Source: an uncultured Clostridia bacterium (GTDB taxonomy: Bacteria > Bacillota > Clostridia > TANB77 > CAG-508). Taken from it: DNA of 64,000 bases. This document shows, in pieces, positions 2,602-45,037 of the stretch (the first letter of the stretch is position 1; each line of letters starts with the position of its first letter). Both the position numbers and the translations under genes were made by a program. Below the pieces are notes generated by a model. It saw only the letters and a program-made list of their open reading frames with translations. It made no database searches and was not told the DNA's origin. The stretch lies in the NCBI GenBank assembly GCA_944391745.1, contig CALXUS010000001.1, forward strand, positions 81,425-145,424. The letters are read 5' to 3'.

Positions 2602-5319
2602 TTATTTTTGTTTTCTATCATGTTTTGTCTTTATTTTTACTAATGGTTTTAATCCTTTTTCTTTTCTATTGCTATCTATTATTACTAATGCCTTTCTTGT
2701 TATTAAGAAGATTCCGCCTGCTATCATTATTCCTAGGCCTATTTCATATATTTCTTTGGTTCCTAGGCTTCCGCTCGATGGAAATACAAACATTTTTTTA
2801 TTTGGTAATAATAATTCTTTTGAATCTGTTTCTGCTAAAGCTGGTGGATTGCCAATCGCTGTTATTCTTATATTAGTACCATTTATTCTTACAATTGTGT
2901 TATCTTCTGTATCATAATTTCCATATATAAATTCCATTTTCCACTGCCCGTCAGGTATTAATCTATTTCCTGTAGCTTTAGTTTCTACTAATCTATATTC
3001 TTCATTTATTGGTAAGTCTGGTAAAGTTATTTTTCCTGTTTCTGATGTTACATATTCATCTACTAATGTCCAACAATCTTGTGGATTAATTTTATTTATT
3101 AATTCGTCTTTTTCTGATGAGTCTTTATTAGTTAATCTATATAATTTAAATTTTGTATTTGGTAATACTGTTTGATAGTTTTCTTCGGCCACTTTAGTTA
3201 TTGTTATACTTGCAGTTTTTACTTTATAATAATATGTTACTTCTGTATTATCTTGTATATATCCATTAGCATTATTAGGTTCTTCTACTAATTCATATAT
3301 ATCATAATCTATTTTATCTTCTGAAGCTTTACTTGTTGTGTATTCTTCATTTTTTATCAAACCTTCTGTTATTTCGTCTTCTACTACTTTTCCTTCAGTA
3401 CCACCTTTTAATGGAACTTTTACTTCAGTACCCTCCAAATAATGATGTACTGTTAATGTATAGGTCTTTACTTTATAATAGTAATTTACTATTTGTGTTT
3501 CTCCATCTTCATAAGTTCCTATACTATTTTCTGGTATATATGAATCTGTTCCTATTACTCCTTCAGGTAGTTCTTCACTAATTGCATCATAGTATTCTTC
3601 ATTTGTTATTAATACATATTCCAAATCTGTTTTTGGTGAAGTTTCGTAGTTCTCTCCTATTTTTCCTTTTAAATGATCTGTATCTGTTATTGTTGTAGTA
3701 GTTAAGCCATCTTCTTTTGTATAAAGATAATGGTTTACATCTACTTTTCCTATTGTATTTTCAAAAGATACTACGACTTCTTTATTTTCTTTTACATCTT
3801 GAAATTTGTCTAATGTGTAACTACCATCATAATCTGGTTCAAATTCTATTTCTTCACCATTTATAGTTATTGTTTTTATTATATACCCTTCATCTGGTGT
3901 TATTATTATCGGCTTTGTACTATCTTCTCCATATTCTACAATTTCATACGGAGTATCTCCTGCTCCACTAATATTGCCCCCTGTTCCATCAATCTTTGTT
4001 GTTATATTATAAGATTTTATCATGTAATAATAAATTACTTCTACTTCTGTCGATGTTACTATTCCGCTAGCATTTGAAGGAGTTTTGATTAATTCATATT
4101 TTTCGTCTAAATTTTCAGCAGGTTTTGTTTCATAAGAATCCCCTACTTTATATTCGTAACTTTCATCTGGTGCTACTAACTCTTCTGTATTTTCAATATA
4201 ATGATGTACTGTAAGCTGTGCAGGTTCAAATGTTTTTGGTAAGTTAAATTCGATTGTACAGTTTGAACCACCTTGACCACGCTCTAAATAGAATATACTT
4301 AATGTATGTTCTTTTGTTTCATCAGAATATAAATCGTCTCCTATTAAATCGTCTAAATTGGCTATAGTCGTTTCGCTAGATGATCCTCCCCACCATGAGT
4401 TAGTATATCCAATTACTTTTCTAGTAGCGAAATTTATTTCTTGTTCTAATTTATCATGTATTCCACCTAAATCTATTACTAATTTTCCATCGATAAATAC
4501 CCATAAATCATCATCACCTGAAAACCTAAAGATTATATCTTCTGGATTTTCTGTTTTTGTCTTTCCATTAGATGACATATAAAAATTAATCTCTGTTTTT
4601 ACTCCAAAGTGATATATTGCATCTTCACCATTTTTTGAATTAAATGGAAAAAATCCATTTACATTCCTACTTCCCCAAACAGTAGCTTCAGTTGCATTAT
4701 TATATGTATTTTTATTTTCATTTTTTTCTAATTTTACACCACTTTGAGGGATTCCATTTGTAAAGTTTATATCTTCATTATCACTATCCATTATATATGT
4801 ACCATTACCTTGGCTTGTAAATGGCAATAATACATTTTGATAAACTGTTTTCCCTCTATTTGTAGTTTCATCAAATATTCCAATTTCAGGATAATTAAAT
4901 TGTATATTTCCTGATGAATCTAGTTCATTCTTTACCATTCCTGTTGTTTGTGAGCTAGAATAATGATTATATGCCTCACAACTAATTCTACTATTTCCAT
5001 CTATTTCTATTGTATTATTTCCATTTCTATTATTAAAGTATATACCTTGTGTAGAACCTTCTTCTGCTCTTGTTAAACTATTAAATTCATCAGTATTATA
5101 TTTAAACATAGTTACTGGTAAGTATAGTATTTCTCCAGCAGGGTATACTGGTGGTGTATCTGCTAAAGCATCAGTTGTAATATCACTGTTTCTAAATTGT
5201 GAAACAATTGGTAACTCTGATTTGTACACTAAATTTATAATCACTATAACAACTATTATAAAAAAAGCTATTGTAGAAATTTTTAAAGATATTTGTTTTT
5301 TCTTTTTATTATTTCCCAT
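2602..5319 (-). CDS. Cell-surface adhesin-like protein, 905 aa. N-terminal signal/anchor, PA14-like domain (FRFSGDDDLWVFIDGKLVIDLGGIH ... FYLERGQGGS), about 4 MucBP-like repeats (TVHHY...), a Cna-B/prealbumin-like domain, and a C-terminal hydrophobic segment with a basic tail (cell-wall or membrane anchor).
   Basis: ORF-track translation. PA14 and MucBP motifs recognised by eye. C-terminus ...GLGIMIAGGIFLITRKALVI...KTKHDRKQK. Confidence 0.7.
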   Translation of the reverse strand: MGNNKKKKQISLKISTIAFFIIVVIVIINLVYKSELPIVSQFRNSDITTDALADTPPVYPAGEILYLPVTMFKYNTDEFNSLTRAEEGSTQGIYFNNRNGNNTIEIDGNSRISCEAYNHYSSSQTTGMVKNELDSSGNIQFNYPEIGIFDETTNRGKTVYQNVLLPFTSQGNGTYIMDSDNEDINFTNGIPQSGVKLEKNENKNTYNNATEATVWGSRNVNGFFPFNSKNGEDAIYHFGVKTEINFYMSSNGKTKTENPEDIIFRFSGDDDLWVFIDGKLVIDLGGIHDKLEQEINFATRKVIGYTNSWWGGSSSETTIANLDDLIGDDLYSDETKEHTLSIFYLERGQGGSNCTIEFNLPKTFEPAQLTVHHYIENTEELVAPDESYEYKVGDSYETKPAENLDEKYELIKTPSNASGIVTSTEVEVIYYYMIKSYNITTKIDGTGGNISGAGDTPYEIVEYGEDSTKPIIITPDEGYIIKTITINGEEIEFEPDYDGSYTLDKFQDVKENKEVVVSFENTIGKVDVNHYLYTKEDGLTTTTITDTDHLKGKIGENYETSPKTDLEYVLITNEEYYDAISEELPEGVIGTDSYIPENSIGTYEDGETQIVNYYYKVKTYTLTVHHYLEGTEVKVPLKGGTEGKVVEDEITEGLIKNEEYTTSKASEDKIDYDIYELVEEPNNANGYIQDNTEVTYYYKVKTASITITKVAEENYQTVLPNTKFKLYRLTNKDSSEKDELINKINPQDCWTLVDEYVTSETGKITLPDLPINEEYRLVETKATGNRLIPDGQWKMEFIYGNYDTEDNTIVRINGTNIRITAIGNPPALAETDSKELLLPNKKMFVFPSSGSLGTKEIYEIGLGIMIAGGIFLITRKALVIIDSNRKEKGLKPLVKIKTKHDRKQK

Positions 5320-5465
5320 ATATTTTCCTTATTTTATAAATTTGTATATTAAATACTATCATTCTTTTGAAATAGCGTCAATACGAATTATTTTTTAAGA
5401 GTATATCCTTATTGTTTTTTTGCTATATTATAGCATTTTTATAGTTTATTACATTTTGATTACAA

Positions 5466-5497
5466 ATAAAAAAAGACCCTTCAAAAGAAGGGTCCCC
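5466..5497 (-). terminator. Rho-independent terminator (GACCCTTC-AAAA-GAAGGGTC followed by a T-run on the minus strand)
   Basis: Perfect 8-bp GC-rich inverted repeat at 5475-5494. A-run at 5467-5474 on the plus strand, which is a U-run on the minus-strand RNA. Confidence 0.65.
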
Positions 5498-5659
5498 AAA
5501 TTTTCATCTAGTCTGCATATAGCAAACAAATCTCCCCAATGAAAATTTGTAATGCTCAGTAATTCCCGTTTTGCCCGAAAAATTGGAGTGAGGAATGGCA
5601 AATGGTTGTGATTCTTTCAAAACGAGAAAAACCTTTTATCATTATAAAATGATAGCACT
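5466..5659 (-). ncRNA. Candidate small RNA (about 190 nt) running from a consensus sigma-A promoter to the intrinsic terminator. The class is not identified.
   Basis: TTGACA-17 nt-TATAAT on the minus strand (-35 = 5689-5694, -10 = 5666-5671). No ORF. Locally higher G+C. Ends at the terminator at 5466-5497. Confidence 0.35.
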
Positions 5660-5665
5660 TCAATT

Positions 5666-5694
5666 ATTATAGCATCTTTTTAAACTTATGTCAA
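5666..5694 (-). promoter_or_regulatory. Perfect-consensus sigma-A promoter (TTGACA, 17 nt, TATAAT) directly after the recN stop codon
   Basis: Read directly on the minus strand: ttgacataagtttaaaaagatgctataat. Confidence 0.55.
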
Positions 5695-5696
5695 CC

Positions 5697-7316
5697 CTAT
5701 GCTGACTTTCTTAATTCCATGGCATGCTTTCTAGCTGTTTCAGTAATTTCTCCATTAGATATTCTTGCTACTTCATTAATAACCTCATCTTCAGTTAATT
5801 TTTTTACCTGAGTAAAAGTTCTACCATTCTTTGATAATTTACTAATGTAAAAGTTTTCATCACCTTTAGCTGCAATACTTGGTTGATGTGTAATACAAAG
5901 TACTTGATGATTTTTTCCAATTAACTTTAATTTTTCTCCTACTGATTTAGCAGCCTTTCCACTAATACCTGTGTCTATTTCATCAAATATAAGAACAGGT
6001 GTACTATCTGTATTAGCTAAAACGGTTTTTATTGCTAACATTATTCTTGACATTTCTCCACCAGATGCTATTTTAGCTAATTCTTTTTCATTTTCACCTA
6101 TATTAGTAGATATATAATATTCAACATCATCAGTTCCATTTTTATTGAATTCTACTGTGTTAATATGTGTTATAAATGTGCTATTAGGCATTTCTAAATC
6201 GGCTAATTCTTTATTTATTTTGCTATCTAATATCTTTGCATTAGTCATTCTGATTTCATGCATTTTATTAGATAATTCTAGCATTTTTTGCTCTATATCA
6301 TTAAGCTCTTTTTTTAATTCATTATTATATTCATCTAAATTATTTATTCTATTAATCTCTTTTTCTGTTTTTTCTTTATAATCTAATATTTCTTCTATGC
6401 TATTTCCATATTTTCTTTTTAAAGAATATATTAAATCTAGTCTTTCTTCTACTTCGTTTCTTTCGTTTTCGTCAAAATACATATCTGAATTTAAAGATGA
6501 TATATCTCGTGAAAGCTCTTGCACTTCATAATAAATACTTTTTAAATTATTTAAAGTGTTATCATACTTTTTATCTAAATCGCTGATTTTTTCTACTGCT
6601 CTTATTGCCTCATTAATTTTATCTATTGCACCTTCTCCTAGTGCTAAATCTGCTTGATTTAAGCTTTTTCCTATTTTTTCTGAATTCATAAAGAACTTTC
6701 TTTTTTCTTCTAATTCTTCTTCTTCACCAAGTTTTAAGTCTGCATTTTCTATTTCGTCAAATTCATATTGTAGTAAACTTAGTTGCCTTTGCTTTTCTTT
6801 GTCATCTCCTAAATTAGCTTTTAACTCTTTTTTTATTTCTTGTCTTTTATTATATAAATTTCTATATTCATTTTTTGCAACTATAATTTCGTTACCTATA
6901 AAATTATCTAGGTACTTAATATGATATTTGGGGTTAAGTATTTTTTGATTATCGTTTTGACCATGAATATCTATTATATTATTCATAAATTCTTTTAATT
7001 CTGTCAAAGTAACTAGTCTACCATTAATTTTGCATGAATTTCTTCCATTTAAATGAATTTCTCTACTTACTATTATATTATTTTCTATAGCTAAATCATT
7101 ATTTGGAAGATATAAATTAAGTTCTACAAAAGAGTAATCTTCACCTTTTCTTATCATTTCCTTTGAGAATCTACCTCCACATATTATGCTTATAGAATCG
7201 ATTATAAGTGTTTTACCTGCACCAGTTTCACCTGTAAGTACATTAAATCCTTCACCTAGTTCGATGCTTAAATCATCTATTATTCCTATATTTTTTATAT
7301 GTAGAGTTGTTATCAT
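5697..7316 (-). CDS. recN: DNA repair protein RecN
   Basis: 539 aa. N-terminal Walker A (GETGAGKT), SMC-like coiled-coil middle, C-terminal signature and Walker B. Confidence 0.9.
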   Translation of the reverse strand: MITTLHIKNIGIIDDLSIELGEGFNVLTGETGAGKTLIIDSISIICGGRFSKEMIRKGEDYSFVELNLYLPNNDLAIENNIIVSREIHLNGRNSCKINGRLVTLTELKEFMNNIIDIHGQNDNQKILNPKYHIKYLDNFIGNEIIVAKNEYRNLYNKRQEIKKELKANLGDDKEKQRQLSLLQYEFDEIENADLKLGEEEELEEKRKFFMNSEKIGKSLNQADLALGEGAIDKINEAIRAVEKISDLDKKYDNTLNNLKSIYYEVQELSRDISSLNSDMYFDENERNEVEERLDLIYSLKRKYGNSIEEILDYKEKTEKEINRINNLDEYNNELKKELNDIEQKMLELSNKMHEIRMTNAKILDSKINKELADLEMPNSTFITHINTVEFNKNGTDDVEYYISTNIGENEKELAKIASGGEMSRIMLAIKTVLANTDSTPVLIFDEIDTGISGKAAKSVGEKLKLIGKNHQVLCITHQPSIAAKGDENFYISKLSKNGRTFTQVKKLTEDEVINEVARISNGEITETARKHAMELRKSA

Positions 7317-7484: not shown

Positions 7485-8006
7485 TTAGACTAATTTTAAG
7501 ATAACTGTTTCTGCAGCATCTCCTCTACGTTGACCTAATTTAATTATTTGAGTATATCCACCAACTCTATCTGCATATCTTGGTGCAATAACATTAAATA
7601 ATTTATCTGTTAAGTCTATTGGAGTACCTTCATTATCTTTTACTTTATTTAATTTTGTCATCATTTTTCTTCTAGCATTTAATCTAGATGGTCTGTCTTT
7701 TTGTCTTTTTTCCATTTTCTCTTCTTTAACAACTTTTAGGAATTCTTTTCCATTTTTGCTTTTTACTAATTCAGTTTCTTTATTTCCTTTGCTGTCACGT
7801 TTTGCTTTAACAACTTTTACTTCAACTTCATCAAAGTTATCTTTTTCTTTAACAGCTAGTGAAATTAAGCTATCTACAATTGCTTTTACTTCTTTAGCTC
7901 TAGCTTCAGTTGTTTGTATTTGTTCATGCCAAATTAGGTCTGTTGACAAGTTTTTTAGCATTGCTAGTCTTATGTCAGTAGTTTTTCCTAATTTTCTATT
8001 TGCCAT
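7485..8006 (-). CDS. rplQ: 50S ribosomal protein L17, with a roughly 50-aa Lys/Glu-rich internal expansion
   Basis: Conserved N-terminus (RKLGKTTDIRLAMLKNL) and C-terminus (RYADRVGGYTQIIKLGQRRGDAAETVILKLV). 173 aa versus about 120 typical. Confidence 0.9.
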   Translation of the reverse strand: MANRKLGKTTDIRLAMLKNLSTDLIWHEQIQTTEARAKEVKAIVDSLISLAVKEKDNFDEVEVKVVKAKRDSKGNKETELVKSKNGKEFLKVVKEEKMEKRQKDRPSRLNARRKMMTKLNKVKDNEGTPIDLTDKLFNVIAPRYADRVGGYTQIIKLGQRRGDAAETVILKLV

Positions 8007-8029
8007 TTTACCTTTCCTCCTATTCTTGC

Positions 8030-8977
8030 TTATTCTTCTTCTTTGGCTAAATCTAAGCCTAACTCATGTAATTTTGCAATTACTTCTTCTAATGATTTCT
8101 TACCTAAGTTTTTAACTTTCATCATATCTGTTTCTGTTTTATTAGCTAAATCTTCAACTGTTGATATTCCTGATCTCTTTAGGCAGTTGAATGATCTTAC
8201 AGATAATTCTAGTTCTTCTATAGGCATTTCTAAGATTTTTTCTTTCTTATTTTCTTCTTTTTCAATCATTATTTGAGTATTTTTTGCTGTTTCTGATAAA
8301 TCTACAAATAGTTTTAAATGTTCTGTTAAAACTTTAGCAGCTAAGCTTAATGCTTCATAAGGCTCTAAGCTTCCATCAGTCCATAGTTCTATTGTTAGTT
8401 TATCATAATCAACCATTTGTCCAACTCTAGTATTTTCTACTGAGTAGTTTACTTTTTTTACTGGTGAGTAAATAGAATCTATTGCTATTACTCCTATTGG
8501 TTGATTTGGTACTTTATTTTTTTCAGCTGTATTATATCCTCTTCCCCTATCTGCAACCATTTCCATGTTAAGCTTTCCACCTTTAGAAACTGTTGCAATA
8601 TGTAAGTCTGGATTTAATACTTCTACTGTACCATCAGTAATAATGTCTCCTGCTTTTACTTCACCTTCACCTTCGAAATTAATTCTAAGTGTTTTTTCTT
8701 CGTTTTTGTCCATTTTGATTCTAACCATTTTTAGGTTAAGTATTATTTCAGGTACATCTTCAACAACATTTGGTATTGTAGTAAATTCATGTTGAGCTCC
8801 ATCTATTTTTACGCTCTTAATTGCACATCCTGGTAATGATGAAAGTAGTATTCTTCTTAAAGAATTTCCGATAGTGATACCATAACCACGTTCTAGTGGC
8901 TCACATACAAATTTTGCATATTTTTTTTCATCATCTATCTCCAAACATTTAATATTTGGCTTTTCGAATTCTATCAT
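8030..8977 (-). CDS. rpoA: DNA-directed RNA polymerase alpha subunit
   Basis: 315 aa. Classic RpoA N-terminal and C-terminal domain motifs. Position after rpsD. Confidence 0.95.
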
Positions 8978-31621: not shown

Positions 31622-31696
31622 AGGGGTATGATGTTAATGGTAGCATTCCGGTCTCCAAAACCGTGCGTGAGGGTTCAAATCCTTCTACCCCTGCCA
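31622..31696 (+). tRNA. tRNA-Trp (anticodon CCA), with encoded CCA end
   Basis: 7-bp acceptor stem aggggta/tacccct. Anticodon loop cuCCAaa. T-loop GGTTCAAATCC. Confidence 0.85.
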
Positions 31697-35647: not shown

Positions 35648-38600
35648 TTAATAGTTTGCTCTCATTTTATTTAAAGTTCCATTTACTCCTGATGAAAATT
35701 GTGTTTTTGATTGCTTTTTACTTTTTCCTCTAAATAATCCTCTTTTTTCCGCCTTTTCATAGTTTGGCGAATAATTATTATAATTACTTGATCCTGGTAA
35801 TAATGGATAAACCATACTTGCTAATTTTTCTAGACTATTTAAGAACTCCTGTGAATAACCATTTAATGAAACCTGACATAATGCTATAGCTTCCAAATAT
35901 CTTGCATAAGTCTGCATTTCAAATGGTATTGTTGTGTATTTTATATTATTAGGATCAAATAAGTCTCTTTGTAAAGTCATAGATGGTTCATTATATTTTG
36001 CCATTCCACCTAAAATCATTTTATTATTAACTAATTTTAGTTTCATTTCTTTGTTAATTACTACTCTTAATTTAGATTCATCTAAAGCATTTTTCATTTT
36101 TAATTCGCTTAAAAATTGTGTAAGTGGTTGAATTGTAAGCGCATCCATTGATTGTACTAAATATATTTCTGTAGCTTTAACAAAATAATTTATATCTGTA
36201 TTAAAATCACAATCTATTAATACTGCAGAAAAATTATTATCCAATGTTTGTAATACAGATTCAAAGTTTTCATCATCATTTATCTCTTCTGGAACTGATG
36301 TAAATACTGTTAAATTTTTATTTACTTGTACGCCTTCTGCATTTCCTCTAGCAAGATTACTTATACTTTGTCTTGCAAGATCCATTAATTTTTGATCATT
36401 ATCTGTAAACATATAATACGAATTCTTATTTTTTGTTAAATCAAGTATCGCTGTTTTTATACCTTTTTGAGATAAAAGCTCAGCTAAGTTATTTACGATA
36501 AATGATGTACCATTTTTTGTAGTTCCTACAAATGCAACAATTTTATTTTGTGCTATAAAATTACTTGGAATTACATTATTTCGTTGTCTTGTTCTAGTTA
36601 AATCTTGTGTTTCTCCTCCGACATTAAATAAATCATTGTTAAATTGTGGTGTTTGACTATAAGCCATTCCAAATCCATTTTGATTTTCACTTTCATTATT
36701 TACTTCTGGTGTGTAATTTTGTTGTGCATTATTAAATTGATTTTCATTATTTAATTCATTTCCATAAGGTAAATTTGCATCATTCTCATAAGGTGTTTGT
36801 TCTTTTTCATTTTCAAAAGATGTTGATTGAAAAGGATTTACATTATAAGAATCTGATTGCATTGTATTTACATCATAAGGATTTGATTGCATAGAACTAA
36901 CTTCATAAGGACTTGTTGGTTGATTATTATTTACTTCACTATGATTCATTTCGTTTGTTGCATTATTAAATGTATCATAAGGATTTACTGGCGAATTATT
37001 TAAGTCATTATTTATATAATTTTGTTGAGTTCCATTTACTGGATCTTGTTCTTGTATTGTACTTGATGTATTATCATCAGCCATTCCAAATAAGTTAAAA
37101 TCATCATTTGAATTTCCAGCTTGATTATTAGTATTATTATTTAATGTATTAGCTGTATTATTTATAGTATTTGTATCATGAGGATTTACTTGATTATTTT
37201 CAACATTTGGACTTACATTATTTGTTTCATATTGACTTGTTTGAGTTGGTTCATTTCCTAAATCAAATAAATTAAATGTATCATTATTTGATGTTTGTCC
37301 ATTTTGAATTTCAGTATTTTGACTATTTGCATTTGGAATTTCAACATTTTGAGCTGGTATATTTTCTGTAGTATTTAAAACATTTTGTGGCATTGTTTCC
37401 ACTGAAGTTGATGCATTTTCCAAATCGCTTGCAATAACATTTGTATTTTTTCTTGGTCTTCCTCTTCCTCTTTTTGGTTGCTGAGGAACGGCTTCTTCAT
37501 TTGTAACAATTTTTCTTGGTCTTCCTCTTTTTCTAGGTTGAGGTTCTACTACTGGGTTTTGTATAGTAGGTGCTTGACTTTCATTATTGTTATTTAGAGT
37601 TGTATTTTCACTTACCCCCATTGGTTCTACTTTGAACATATCTTGTGGTTGTGCATTATTCATTATATTATCTTGATATACACTTTGATTTTGCATTCCC
37701 ATTGGTTCTGGATTATATACTTCTTGTGGTTGTACATTATTCATTGTATTGTCTTGATATACATTTTGATTTTGCATTCCAACTGGTTCTGGATTGTATA
37801 CTTCTTGTGGTTGTACATTATTCATTGTATTATCTTGATATACATTTTGATTTTGCATTCCCATTGGTTCTGGGTTATATACTTCTTGTGGTTGTACATT
37901 ATTCATTGTATTATCTTGATATACACTTTGATTTTGCATTCCAACTGGTTCTGGATTGTATACTTCTTGTGGTTGTACATTATTCATTGTGTTATCTTGA
38001 TATACACTTTGATTTTGCATTCCCATTGGTTCTGGTTGATATATATTTTGTGAATTTGACATATTCATTGTTGGTTTTGAAAAATAGTTATTATTTGAAT
38101 TAATGCTAGTTTCTCCGTAAGAATTCAATGGCTGTATGTTGCTATTTTCTTGGTTATTATAATTATTATTCATTATATTTGAATTTCTATTATTATTTTG
38201 ATTAACCGCTGGTGCAACTGTTTGAGCAGTAGTTATATCCATTGTTGATGGTATAATAACTTGTCCTTTTATTGTTGGCTTTTCTATATCTACAGTTAAT
38301 ATGTCCCTCTTTGAAGAAGGCTTATTATTTGTTGGACTATAAGGTTTATATTGTCCATTTGAAAGCACTGTTCCTCCATTAACTAATTTTTGATATTTTT
38401 CTGATTTTTTTTCTAACACATTTTTTACATTGTTAGGTAAAAATTTAATGATTATTCTTAATTGTGTATCATTATATTGACTAGCTATACTGTCAAAACT
38501 TTCAACATACTTTTTCTCATTATTTCCTAATTTTTTATAATGTGATAATATATTTTTTATCTCATTTTCACTAACTTCTGATTCATTTCCTGGCTCATAA

Positions 38601-39067
38601 TTTACTTCATCTGAACCTATTTTATAGTAACTTTTTGCTTCTTTTTTGCTTCTAGGTTTATAAATCAAATTACATACAGTTTCAACATTTCTATCATTAC
38701 CTAATAAAGCATTATAAATACCTATTCCAAATAATTTAACTAGTAATTGATCTGATTTTGTTCTACGATCAGAACAAATTAAAATAATTGGAATATCTTC
38801 TCCTGTTGTTTTATAAGCTTCATCACTTATATTATCTAATTTATCAAATAAAAATTTATCTATAGAATCATAATTATTATTTGATATTGGTTCTAAATCT
38901 TCTCCTATTACTATTGCATCATAAGTTTTATCCTTTTGTAGTTCTTTTATTATTGCATTAAAGTAATAAACATTTTTGCTTGTTATTATCTCCTTATATT
39001 TTTCAGAATATTTTTTTATTATCAATGATGATTGATTATCATTACTTACTGCAAATAAAACTTTCAT
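35648..39067 (-). CDS. Giant (1139 aa) TadZ/CpaE-like protein: N-terminal receiver-like domain, a roughly 600-aa N/Q/P-rich low-complexity region with 29-aa tandem repeats and two AT-hook motifs (RGRPRK), and a C-terminal ParA/MinD-like ATPase domain with a deviant P-loop
   Basis: C-terminal IVAFVGTTKNGTSFIVNNLAELLSQKGIKTAILDL ... AVLIDCD. AT-hooks PRKRGRPRKIV and KRGRGRPRKN. Confidence 0.6.
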   Translation of the reverse strand: MKVLFAVSNDNQSSLIIKKYSEKYKEIITSKNVYYFNAIIKELQKDKTYDAIVIGEDLEPISNNNYDSIDKFLFDKLDNISDEAYKTTGEDIPIILICSDRRTKSDQLLVKLFGIGIYNALLGNDRNVETVCNLIYKPRSKKEAKSYYKIGSDEVNYEPGNESEVSENEIKNILSHYKKLGNNEKKYVESFDSIASQYNDTQLRIIIKFLPNNVKNVLEKKSEKYQKLVNGGTVLSNGQYKPYSPTNNKPSSKRDILTVDIEKPTIKGQVIIPSTMDITTAQTVAPAVNQNNNRNSNIMNNNYNNQENSNIQPLNSYGETSINSNNNYFSKPTMNMSNSQNIYQPEPMGMQNQSVYQDNTMNNVQPQEVYNPEPVGMQNQSVYQDNTMNNVQPQEVYNPEPMGMQNQNVYQDNTMNNVQPQEVYNPEPVGMQNQNVYQDNTMNNVQPQEVYNPEPMGMQNQSVYQDNIMNNAQPQDMFKVEPMGVSENTTLNNNNESQAPTIQNPVVEPQPRKRGRPRKIVTNEEAVPQQPKRGRGRPRKNTNVIASDLENASTSVETMPQNVLNTTENIPAQNVEIPNANSQNTEIQNGQTSNNDTFNLFDLGNEPTQTSQYETNNVSPNVENNQVNPHDTNTINNTANTLNNNTNNQAGNSNDDFNLFGMADDNTSSTIQEQDPVNGTQQNYINNDLNNSPVNPYDTFNNATNEMNHSEVNNNQPTSPYEVSSMQSNPYDVNTMQSDSYNVNPFQSTSFENEKEQTPYENDANLPYGNELNNENQFNNAQQNYTPEVNNESENQNGFGMAYSQTPQFNNDLFNVGGETQDLTRTRQRNNVIPSNFIAQNKIVAFVGTTKNGTSFIVNNLAELLSQKGIKTAILDLTKNKNSYYMFTDNDQKLMDLARQSISNLARGNAEGVQVNKNLTVFTSVPEEINDDENFESVLQTLDNNFSAVLIDCDFNTDINYFVKATEIYLVQSMDALTIQPLTQFLSELKMKNALDESKLRVVINKEMKLKLVNNKMILGGMAKYNEPSMTLQRDLFDPNNIKYTTIPFEMQTYARYLEAIALCQVSLNGYSQEFLNSLEKLASMVYPLLPGSSNYNNYSPNYEKAEKRGLFRGKSKKQSKTQFSSGVNGTLNKMRANY
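37590..38050. repeat. Intragenic 87-bp tandem DNA repeat (about 5 copies) encoding YNPEP(V/M)GMQNQ(S/N)VYQDNTMNNVQPQEV
   Basis: Direct near-identical 87-nt units are visible in the sequence. Confidence 0.8.
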
Positions 39068-44363: not shown

Positions 44364-44888
44364 TTAAGCGACAGAATAAATCCTCATCAACTTCCTTCCC
44401 GTCTCACGACTTTCTTCTTTATCAATCTTGATAGTCTCGTTAACCACCTTAACTACCAAATTGCCATGTTGAACCAATGGTTCCCAGCCATCATTTTCAA
44501 CATCGGAATGAGAAGCTTTTTGGATTTCCCAGACATCAACATCCGGAACGGGTTTTGCCTCTTTTTCTACATACTGATTGAAAAAGTCAATCAGTACAGG
44601 ACGAATTGTGTCGTCCTTAAGAGCCTTAAACAAAAGGAAACTCCTTCCATCGTCCGTTTCGTTTTTGTTTCGAACGTAAATATTTTTGAGTTGCCCCCTT
44701 GTCAAGGTCAGATAATCAAGCATTTTTCCAATGCCTTCAGGCTCTTTGTTCAAGTTTTCCCTCTCGCTGTCAGTGAGCTTACGCATTTTGCGTTTTCTTG
44801 CGTAAACTGTAACATTGGTAGGTTTTTTCTTGACAAAACCTAATTCCTCTGCTGCCTTCCGTTTTACCGTATTGAAGAATGTAGCCAT
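44364..44888 (-). CDS. Hypothetical basic/acidic 174-aa protein encoded on a second GC-rich (foreign-looking) segment
   Basis: Markedly higher G+C and GC-rich codons compared with the flanks. Stand-alone gene with a terminator. Confidence 0.55.
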   Translation of the reverse strand: MATFFNTVKRKAAEELGFVKKKPTNVTVYARKRKMRKLTDSERENLNKEPEGIGKMLDYLTLTRGQLKNIYVRNKNETDDGRSFLLFKALKDDTIRPVLIDFFNQYVEKEAKPVPDVDVWEIQKASHSDVENDGWEPLVQHGNLVVKVVNETIKIDKEESRETGRKLMRIYSVA

Positions 44889-45037
44889 CCTTCATCACTC
44901 CCTTCAGTAAAGTATCTTATCTATTATACCACTATTAACATAAAAAATCAACCAATAAGTAAAATTTACTTATTGGTTTAATAAATTTTCATTTCATTAC
45001 CCCTTAAATGTAGTATTTACTTACTGGTTGATATTTA

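Follow-up and report, generated by a model that had tools for sequence, protein, structure and literature searches.

In enterobacteria, the 'type I' 3'-UTR sRNAs such as DapZ and MicL are transcribed from their own promoter, and in Staphylococcus aureus the Rsa RNAs carry UCCC motifs, generalised as a class of C-rich motifs. Pairing of C-rich unpaired motifs with Shine-Dalgarno regions, as described for RsaE and RoxS, is an established mode of action of Firmicute sRNAs (PMC6158497, PMC5419742). The regulatory RNAs of uncultured gut Clostridia with small genomes are essentially uncharted. Here, in a window of 64 kb (the whole stretch of DNA that was analysed) from an uncultured Clostridia bacterium, we describe a region between recN and an adhesin gene that very probably encodes a structured small RNA as a stand-alone gene, with its own sigma-A promoter and a strong intrinsic terminator; the transcript is predicted from the sequence. 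All features of this locus lie on the minus strand.

The perfect sigma-A promoter that had been reported directly after the recN stop codon is indeed there: at 5694-5666 the sequence TTGACA-17-TATAAT matches the consensus at 12 of 12 positions and has a TG-extended -10 element (TGcTATAAT, 5666-5674), and the -35 box begins 3 nt after the TAG stop of recN (5699-5697). Only three perfect sites of this form occur in the 64 kb, compared with 0.07 expected, and the remaining two lie upstream of recN (7389-7361) and of the ribosomal protein operon (the infA-rpsM-rpoA-rplQ cluster). The -35 box together with the invariant TAA behind it spans 5686-5694; the resulting string, TTGACATAA, occurs once in the window and is the same in all 15 homologous loci. 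Throughout the 15 variants the promoter has the form TTGACATAA-N13/14-TA(T/A)AAT, mostly with the TGn extension, behind upstream spacers that are unalignable. At the other end lies an intrinsic terminator (5466-5497), defined by the site call at 5497-5472 together with the pairing of 5496-5487 with 5482-5473 ahead of a U-run. Its position agrees with the preliminary description but its loop does not: on the transcribed strand it reads GGGGACCCUUC-UUUU-GAAGGGUCUUU plus the U-run, the AAAA given earlier being a plus-strand reading. No other terminator-like site occurs in 1.5 kb (0.2 in shuffled sequences), and its helix is 99% paired, with five compensatory pairs among 15 sequences. We predict a transcript of ~194 nt (5466-5659), with both ends predicted: a start at A5659, 7 nt after the -10 element, and a 3' end within the U-run. 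The adhesin gene begins with an ATG at 5319, 153 nt beyond the terminator, very close to the distance of about 150 bp first given.

The interval is richer in GC than its surroundings, as had been noted (34.5%, compared with 28.5% for the window and 17.8% for the downstream spacer), and its predicted minimum free energy of -57.2 kcal/mol compares with -39.0 +/- 3.8 for shuffled sequences (z = -4.8). A scan of the whole window against Rfam 15 at gathering thresholds returned only a tRNA at 31622-31693, and scans of the window, L007 and L114 copies of the RNA at E<=10 returned only terminator-driven matches of 9-29 bits, to families whose gathering scores are 37-440. With no Rfam 15 match at or above the gathering threshold, we rejected membership in 6S RNA (RF00013), the c-di-GMP-I/II riboswitches, T-box, RsaE, SRP and tmRNA. 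The judgement by eye that this is neither 6S RNA nor a c-di-GMP riboswitch therefore stands, and the Rfam scan that had been suggested as a means of reclassifying the element points to no known family. The conserved sequence strings had no match in our literature search or in 200 of the 408 supplementary files of a catalogue of structured RNAs from the human microbiome (PMC8040213). We regard the sRNA as a genuinely new family, with no match in Rfam 15 or in the literature searched, of a general kind that is already known.

The distribution of the gene was assessed with a RecN-anchored scan of one genome per species, which returned 80 loci from metagenome-assembled genomes (MAGs) of uncultured gut Clostridia. 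The proposed unit is conserved: 15 sequence variants carry it directly after recN, and they stem from MAGs of related gut Clostridia or from metagenome contigs, with RecN 84-100% identical. The carriers are L001-L003, L005-L009, L102 (one metagenome contig), L112-L119 and the five contigs of the window species, L103-L107. RecN identity is 88-91% in L001-L003 and L005-L009, and a RecN protein search combined with contig look-ups added L112/113, L114, L115/116, L117, L118 and L119, extending the range down to 84%. The family was uncovered by direct reading of the spacers 3' of recN; blastn of the window RNA against the relatives gave almost no matches, because the primary sequence diverges so fast that blastn is nearly blind to the homologues. 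What the units share is gTTGACATAA-N14-TATAAT, a 5' GUGCU, a short hairpin, a long-range helix, a C-rich tract, the string AGCAYUACAAAGUCUC...GAGACUUUGG and the terminator, within a length of ~194 nt in the window and 186-305 nt among relatives. For copy searches we used two covariance models of the 5' domain, R1 and R2 (the window 5' domain, 5659-5548, scores 84 bits with R1). Together with nhmmer, these found no second copy in the window and none within +/-6 kb of recN in L010-L080, where RecN is <=81% identical. Scans of viral contigs gave no family member, and a metagenome pattern scan for the promoter plus the 5' hairpin gave 22 loci, of which L102 was the sole member and the others were unrelated strong promoters.

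In some close relatives the gene is missing or reduced. In L004 and L110 there is no sRNA and recN is followed by an ABC transporter (an ABC-transporter/MacB-FtsX pair). In L108 (4120-4352) and L109 the -35 box TTGACATAA is fused to the final ~50 nt of an L009-type RNA and its terminator, which indicates that the sRNA gene decayed there through deletion of the -10 element and most of the RNA. Since the gene has been lost or has decayed in L004, L110 and L108, it is not essential. Across the five contigs of the window species the RNA has 0 SNPs, while its flanks (promoter spacer and downstream spacer) have 2-5. As far as these data reach, gut Clostridia of one genus-level clade are the only carriers of the family, and it is dispensable in some sister lineages.

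The RNA has six helices on which RNAalifold and explicit pair counts agree (P1, P1a, P2, P3, P3b and the terminator, helix 6), and each sequence folded singly gives the same architecture. The closing helix P1 (5551-5659) pairs AGUGCU (5659-5654) with AGCAUU (5556-5551) over 6 bp, begins exactly at the predicted transcription start and encloses a three-way junction; its UGC/GCA core is invariant, and UGCU/AGCA changes to UGCCU/AGGCA in the L114 group in a compensatory manner. Inside it, hairpin P1a (5638-5653, AUCAUU-UUUA-AAUGAU, with the conserved loop motif UUAU) has all six of its pairs changed on both sides in a 14-sequence alignment. This is the first of two hairpins proposed earlier, and it proved to be real and covarying. 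The second (ccaau...auugg around cgggcaaaacggg) was rejected because its bases form strands of three different conserved helices, belonging to P2 and P1 on the 3' side of each and to P3 on its 5' side. The long-range helix P2 (5558-5633) joins 5633-5618 to 5573-5558 and has compensatory changes at 10 of 11 pairs in MAFFT alignments and at 12 of 13 in the model-fitted alignment of the 5' domain, around a variable interior that ranges from ~40 to 110 nt across lineages. Downstream of the junction, P3 (5497-5549) pairs 5549-5538 with 5508-5497 and holds an internal loop with GGGGAGA (5537-5531) as well as P3b (5527-5511). GGGGAGA is present in 10 of the 15 variants and is replaced by branched inserts of ~110 nt in L001, L003 and L007 and of ~70 nt in L008 and L009. 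The RNA expands at two points, in the interior of P2 and in the internal loop of P3.

Covariation in the homologous spacers, one of the checks suggested at the outset, was abundant. With nine sequences (MAFFT), 97% of the cells were paired and 21 of 41 pairs had changed on both sides, compared with 8.8 +/- 2.1 in shuffled alignments (0 of 500 reached the observed value) and 1-5 when the partners were slid. With 15 sequences (MAFFT), 89% of the cells were paired and 32 of 51 pairs had changed on both sides, against 18.8 +/- 2.3 for shuffles and 10-13 for slid partners. A model-fitted alignment of the 5' domain from 14 sequences gave 92% paired cells and 21 of 25 pairs, against 13.4 for shuffles and with the slid control not used; being fitted to the model, it leans towards the structure. 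The slid-partner control is the fairer comparison because it preserves relatedness, and, as all sequences come from one narrow clade, neither the cells nor the counts are independent events.

Several further structural features were considered and rejected. The 'cggg-caaaa-cggg' stem is a direct repeat. A pseudoknot of CCUCC with GGGGAGA, or with the UUGGGAG before the terminator, could form no more than ~4 bp, the partners show no covariation, and GGGGAGA is missing where CCUCCAAG is strongest. A kink-turn in the P3 internal loop was dismissed because the required G-A is missing on the non-bulged strand, CsrA-type GGA sites are inconsistent among the variants, and a mini-ORF (UUG-CAA-UAG) after GGGGAGA is an unconserved by-product of the P3b hairpin. 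As a separate observation, L114, L117, L118 and L119 form a subgroup with UGCCU/AGGCA in P1, a TAAAAT -10 element in two of them, CCUUCU in place of CCUCC and an ORF of 25-32 codons from an AUG at the RNA 5' end; these shared traits probably reflect close relatedness.

The genes on either side bear on whether the RNA has a gene of its own. Directly upstream lies a recN-like gene (5697-7316, 539 aa, SMC_N/AAA_23 domains), whose perfect promoter (7389-7361) is directly followed by a Cheo/LexA-type box, CGAACATAAGTTCT (7355-7342). Relatives keep this box ahead of recN, in the form CGAACAAAAGTTCA or ...TTTG, and its conservation implies that recN is under SOS control. No terminator was found between the recN stop and the sRNA, and recN transcripts should therefore enter the sRNA and stop at its terminator. 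The sRNA terminator would thus also end the recN unit that bears the LexA box, and read-through from recN could raise the level of the sRNA after DNA damage. In L112, a DDE transposase gene (332-2077, 581 aa) is inserted between the ribosomal protein cluster and recN. Downstream, adhesins are found in the window species only, lysS in most relatives and an ABC transporter in lineages without the RNA. The adhesin ORF (5319-2602, MucBP and PA14 domains) has a promoter-like site of its own, TTGACG-17-TAGTAT with TG (5353-5381), and is the first of two tandem MucBP/PA14 paralogues, the other running from ~2390 to past the window start. In the relatives, lysS has a conserved TTTACA-17-TATAAT promoter block, which also stands directly after recN where the RNA is missing. 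A block of ~35-40 nt, aaaGGTTTACAAAAAGTGGAATATAAGGTATAATA, lies upstream of lysS in L001-L009, L011 and L015 (for example at ~4690-4730 in L002); it is kept in relatives without the sRNA and missing from the window, and, being longer than a promoter requires, it may also contain an operator. The spacer between recN and lysS is a hotspot of gain and loss, of the sRNA gene, adhesins or transporters.

Against this background we weighed three alternatives to a stand-alone sRNA gene. The preliminary description had left it open whether the element is a stand-alone sRNA or a terminator-based leader, such as a riboswitch or attenuator, for the adhesin. Every locus does have a next gene on the same strand, adhesin or lysS, that such a leader could control via the terminator, and a three-way junction closed by P1, with a terminator behind it, looks on the surface like an aptamer with its expression platform. 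However, the next gene is not conserved, an independent promoter lies between the terminator and that gene (for lysS the promoter block persists in relatives without the RNA), and the interior of the junction is hypervariable, which would not be expected of a ligand pocket. Junction and terminator are set apart by the stable P3 hairpin, and the terminator's 5' half is uncontested in the nascent fold of each of the 15 sequences, being unpaired or self-paired with no upstream partner. Nor did nhmmer, R1 or R2 find a copy of the sRNA before the second adhesin, where a similar element had been thought worth looking for. As the downstream gene varies and there is no competing antiterminator, we conclude that this is a stand-alone sRNA rather than an adhesin leader; the cis-regulatory reading is very improbable and already largely refuted. 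A second alternative dispenses with an independent gene altogether and takes the stretch as a structured 3' UTR or terminator module of the SOS-type recN mRNA, concerned with its stability or processing, the promoter being incidental. The conserved Cheo/LexA-type box and the missing terminator after recN would suit this, as would the start of the unit only 3-10 nt after the stop codon in the window, L009, L114, L117 and L118. We nevertheless consider it quite unlikely, given that the promoter is kept in all 15 variants while the recN spacer varies from 3 to ~200 nt and is unalignable, that P1 starts exactly where transcription is predicted to start, and that even the decayed L108 remnant retains the -35 box along with the terminator.

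The interval might also encode a small protein, for instance from a leaderless ORF whose first codon would be the GUG or AUG at RNA positions 2-4, and a GUG or AUG within P1 does open an ORF in most variants, of 25-32 codons in the four L114-group sequences. Yet the start is mostly GUG without a Shine-Dalgarno sequence, and neither the lengths nor the stops of these ORFs are conserved, with 13 codons in the window, 5 in L005, 12 in L002 and a range of 5 to 61 overall. More generally, the interval holds only mechanical ORFs, none of them preceded by a Shine-Dalgarno sequence or of conserved length or stop position among the relatives, as the first reading of the interval as free of ORFs had implied. 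The substitutions track RNA pairing (in pair counts with 15 and with 14 sequences), being paired helix changes and not synonymous-site changes. We rejected the leaderless peptide on its unconserved lengths and stops, and judge a coding function extremely improbable. The stand-alone sRNA, one of the two options first put forward, is the reading that accounts for the joint conservation of promoter, folded body and terminator in 15 variants and for the many compensatory changes among them.

As to what this stand-alone sRNA does, our tentative preference, held somewhat short of even confidence, is for a trans-acting riboregulator that may base-pair through an exposed pyrimidine-rich tract. This candidate seed, CCUCACUCCAA (5583-5593), is anti-Shine-Dalgarno-like and lies in the P2 interior, just 5' of the 3' strand of P2, a position that is conserved, and it is the most conserved unpaired element of that interior. 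The equivalent tract is ACCUCCAAG or CUCCA (CCUCC/CUCCA type) in 11 of the 15 variants, with a predicted unpaired probability of 0.58-0.99, and CCUUCU in the four of the L114 group, where the accessibility varies and the tract is predicted to be mostly paired in L117 and L119. The tract is similar to the 16S anti-Shine-Dalgarno sequence; in target mRNAs it would base-pair with ribosome-binding sites of the GGAGG type and block or modulate translation initiation, with the conserved helices acting as a scaffold and a stabilising 5' end. We scanned 81 translation-initiation regions in the window for targets, and the top two were the ORF at 44888-44364 (174 aa) and rplQ. In the former, UCACUCC:GGAGUGA and the start codon are covered (7 + 6 nt, including the Shine-Dalgarno sequence); in rplQ (start 8000-8030), AUUUGCCAU:AUGGCAAAU is joined by UUCCUC:GAGGAA (9 + 6 nt). 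The extended complementarity involves 5583-5606 of the P2 interior, opposite 8000-8030 (rplQ) and 44880-44915. The rplQ pairing is particular to the window: relatives conserve the rplQ site but not the match to the sRNA. Among the 81 window regions and for rplQ in the relatives, then, the complementarity to Shine-Dalgarno sequences is generic, and no conserved specific target mRNA was established. On the genes themselves, ribosomal protein L17 (7485-8006, minus strand) has 173 aa, a length common to the relatives; its 97-position Pfam model is spread over residues 16-173, pointing to a sizeable insertion or extension. The ORFs at 44364-44888 (174 aa) and 35648-39067 (1139 aa), both on the minus strand, have no Pfam-A match at E<=0.001.

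Several observations speak against base pairing: the tract is CCUUCU, not CCUCC, in the four L114-group variants, it is predicted to be mostly paired in L117 and L119, the target searches described above yielded no conserved target, and strong sequence conservation falls in helices and junctions (UGC/GCA, GCAYUACARAGUCUC, GGGGAGA). Such conservation and large structured inserts are met more typically in RNAs that bind proteins or serve as scaffolds than in simple seed-type sRNAs, and a protein-binding role is nearly as likely. The stand-alone RNA would then mainly bind, sequester or scaffold a protein or the ribosome instead of pairing with mRNAs, a possibility to which we would give about one chance in three. 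Its recognition surface could be formed, at the same level of confidence, by the conserved junction, the purine-rich internal loop of P3 (GGGGAGA facing AAAA) and the hairpin loops UUAU and AAUA, and, again with equal reserve, the C-rich tract could act as a mimic of the 16S 3' tail. This would agree with a primary sequence best kept in and around P1, P3 and the loops and not in one seed alone, with a strict architecture that tolerates inserts of 70-110 nt at defined points, as in many RNP RNAs, with a promoter of ribosomal-protein-operon strength, and with the outcome of the target searches (the window scan and the rplQ check in relatives). It agrees less well with the lack of a consistently linked protein gene, the neighbours being recN and a variable downstream gene, with GGGGAGA being missing in 5 of 15 variants, with the loss or decay of the gene in L004, L110 and L108, so that it is not essential, and with the lack of a match to known protein-binding RNA families in Rfam. 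A bolder reading, unlikely in our estimate, is that the sRNA might be a lineage-specific mimic of the 16S anti-Shine-Dalgarno tail, an abundant RNA showing ACCUCC on a rigid scaffold and co-transcribed with the SOS gene recN in addition to being made from its own promoter. If so, in gut Clostridia with small genomes it could adjust translation initiation globally or link translation to DNA damage, and its P2 and P3 modules would be free to grow into specificity domains that differ from species to species.

We believe that the value of this sRNA, which overturns no principle, lies in an entry for RNA family databases: a family backed by covariation, with defined (predicted) ends, a candidate seed and natural knock-outs among its sister lineages. 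It would also offer a handle for studying how these gut Clostridia regulate genes post-transcriptionally, with a possible link to the SOS response.

Compared with known systems, the sRNA resembles RsaE/RoxS (RF01820) in its phylum, its stand-alone gene, its sigma-A-type promoter and its intrinsic terminator. RsaE and RoxS also have an unpaired C-rich motif complementary to the Shine-Dalgarno sequence (PMC6158497, PMC5419742), as the candidate tract here would be. There is no homology between them, as no match to RF01820 was found at E<=10, and the sRNA described here is about twice as long, has a three-way junction and an expandable 3' hairpin, carries one C-rich tract where the RsaE/RoxS class has several, and is found in a genus-level clade whereas that class extends across the Firmicutes. 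With the type I 3'-UTR sRNAs it shares a place directly after a stop codon, the use of the upstream gene's terminator and a promoter of its own, but the DapZ/MicL type belongs to another phylum, and the promoter here lies after, not inside, the recN coding sequence and 60-200 nt downstream in several relatives. The terminating riboswitches and attenuators likewise have a P1-closed multi-helix junction followed by an intrinsic terminator and a same-strand gene, whereas this sRNA has no antiterminator, an intervening promoter, an unconserved next gene and a hypervariable junction interior. Finally, 6S RNA (RF00013), to which Rfam gave no match at either threshold (gathering or E<=10), is alike in size (~190 nt), in its strong housekeeping-type promoter and in its high degree of structure. 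It is, however, rod-shaped, with a closing stem of the paired 5' and 3' ends and a bubble at its centre, while in the sRNA described here the 5' end pairs two-thirds along the RNA to form P1, and a separate hairpin and the terminator then follow.
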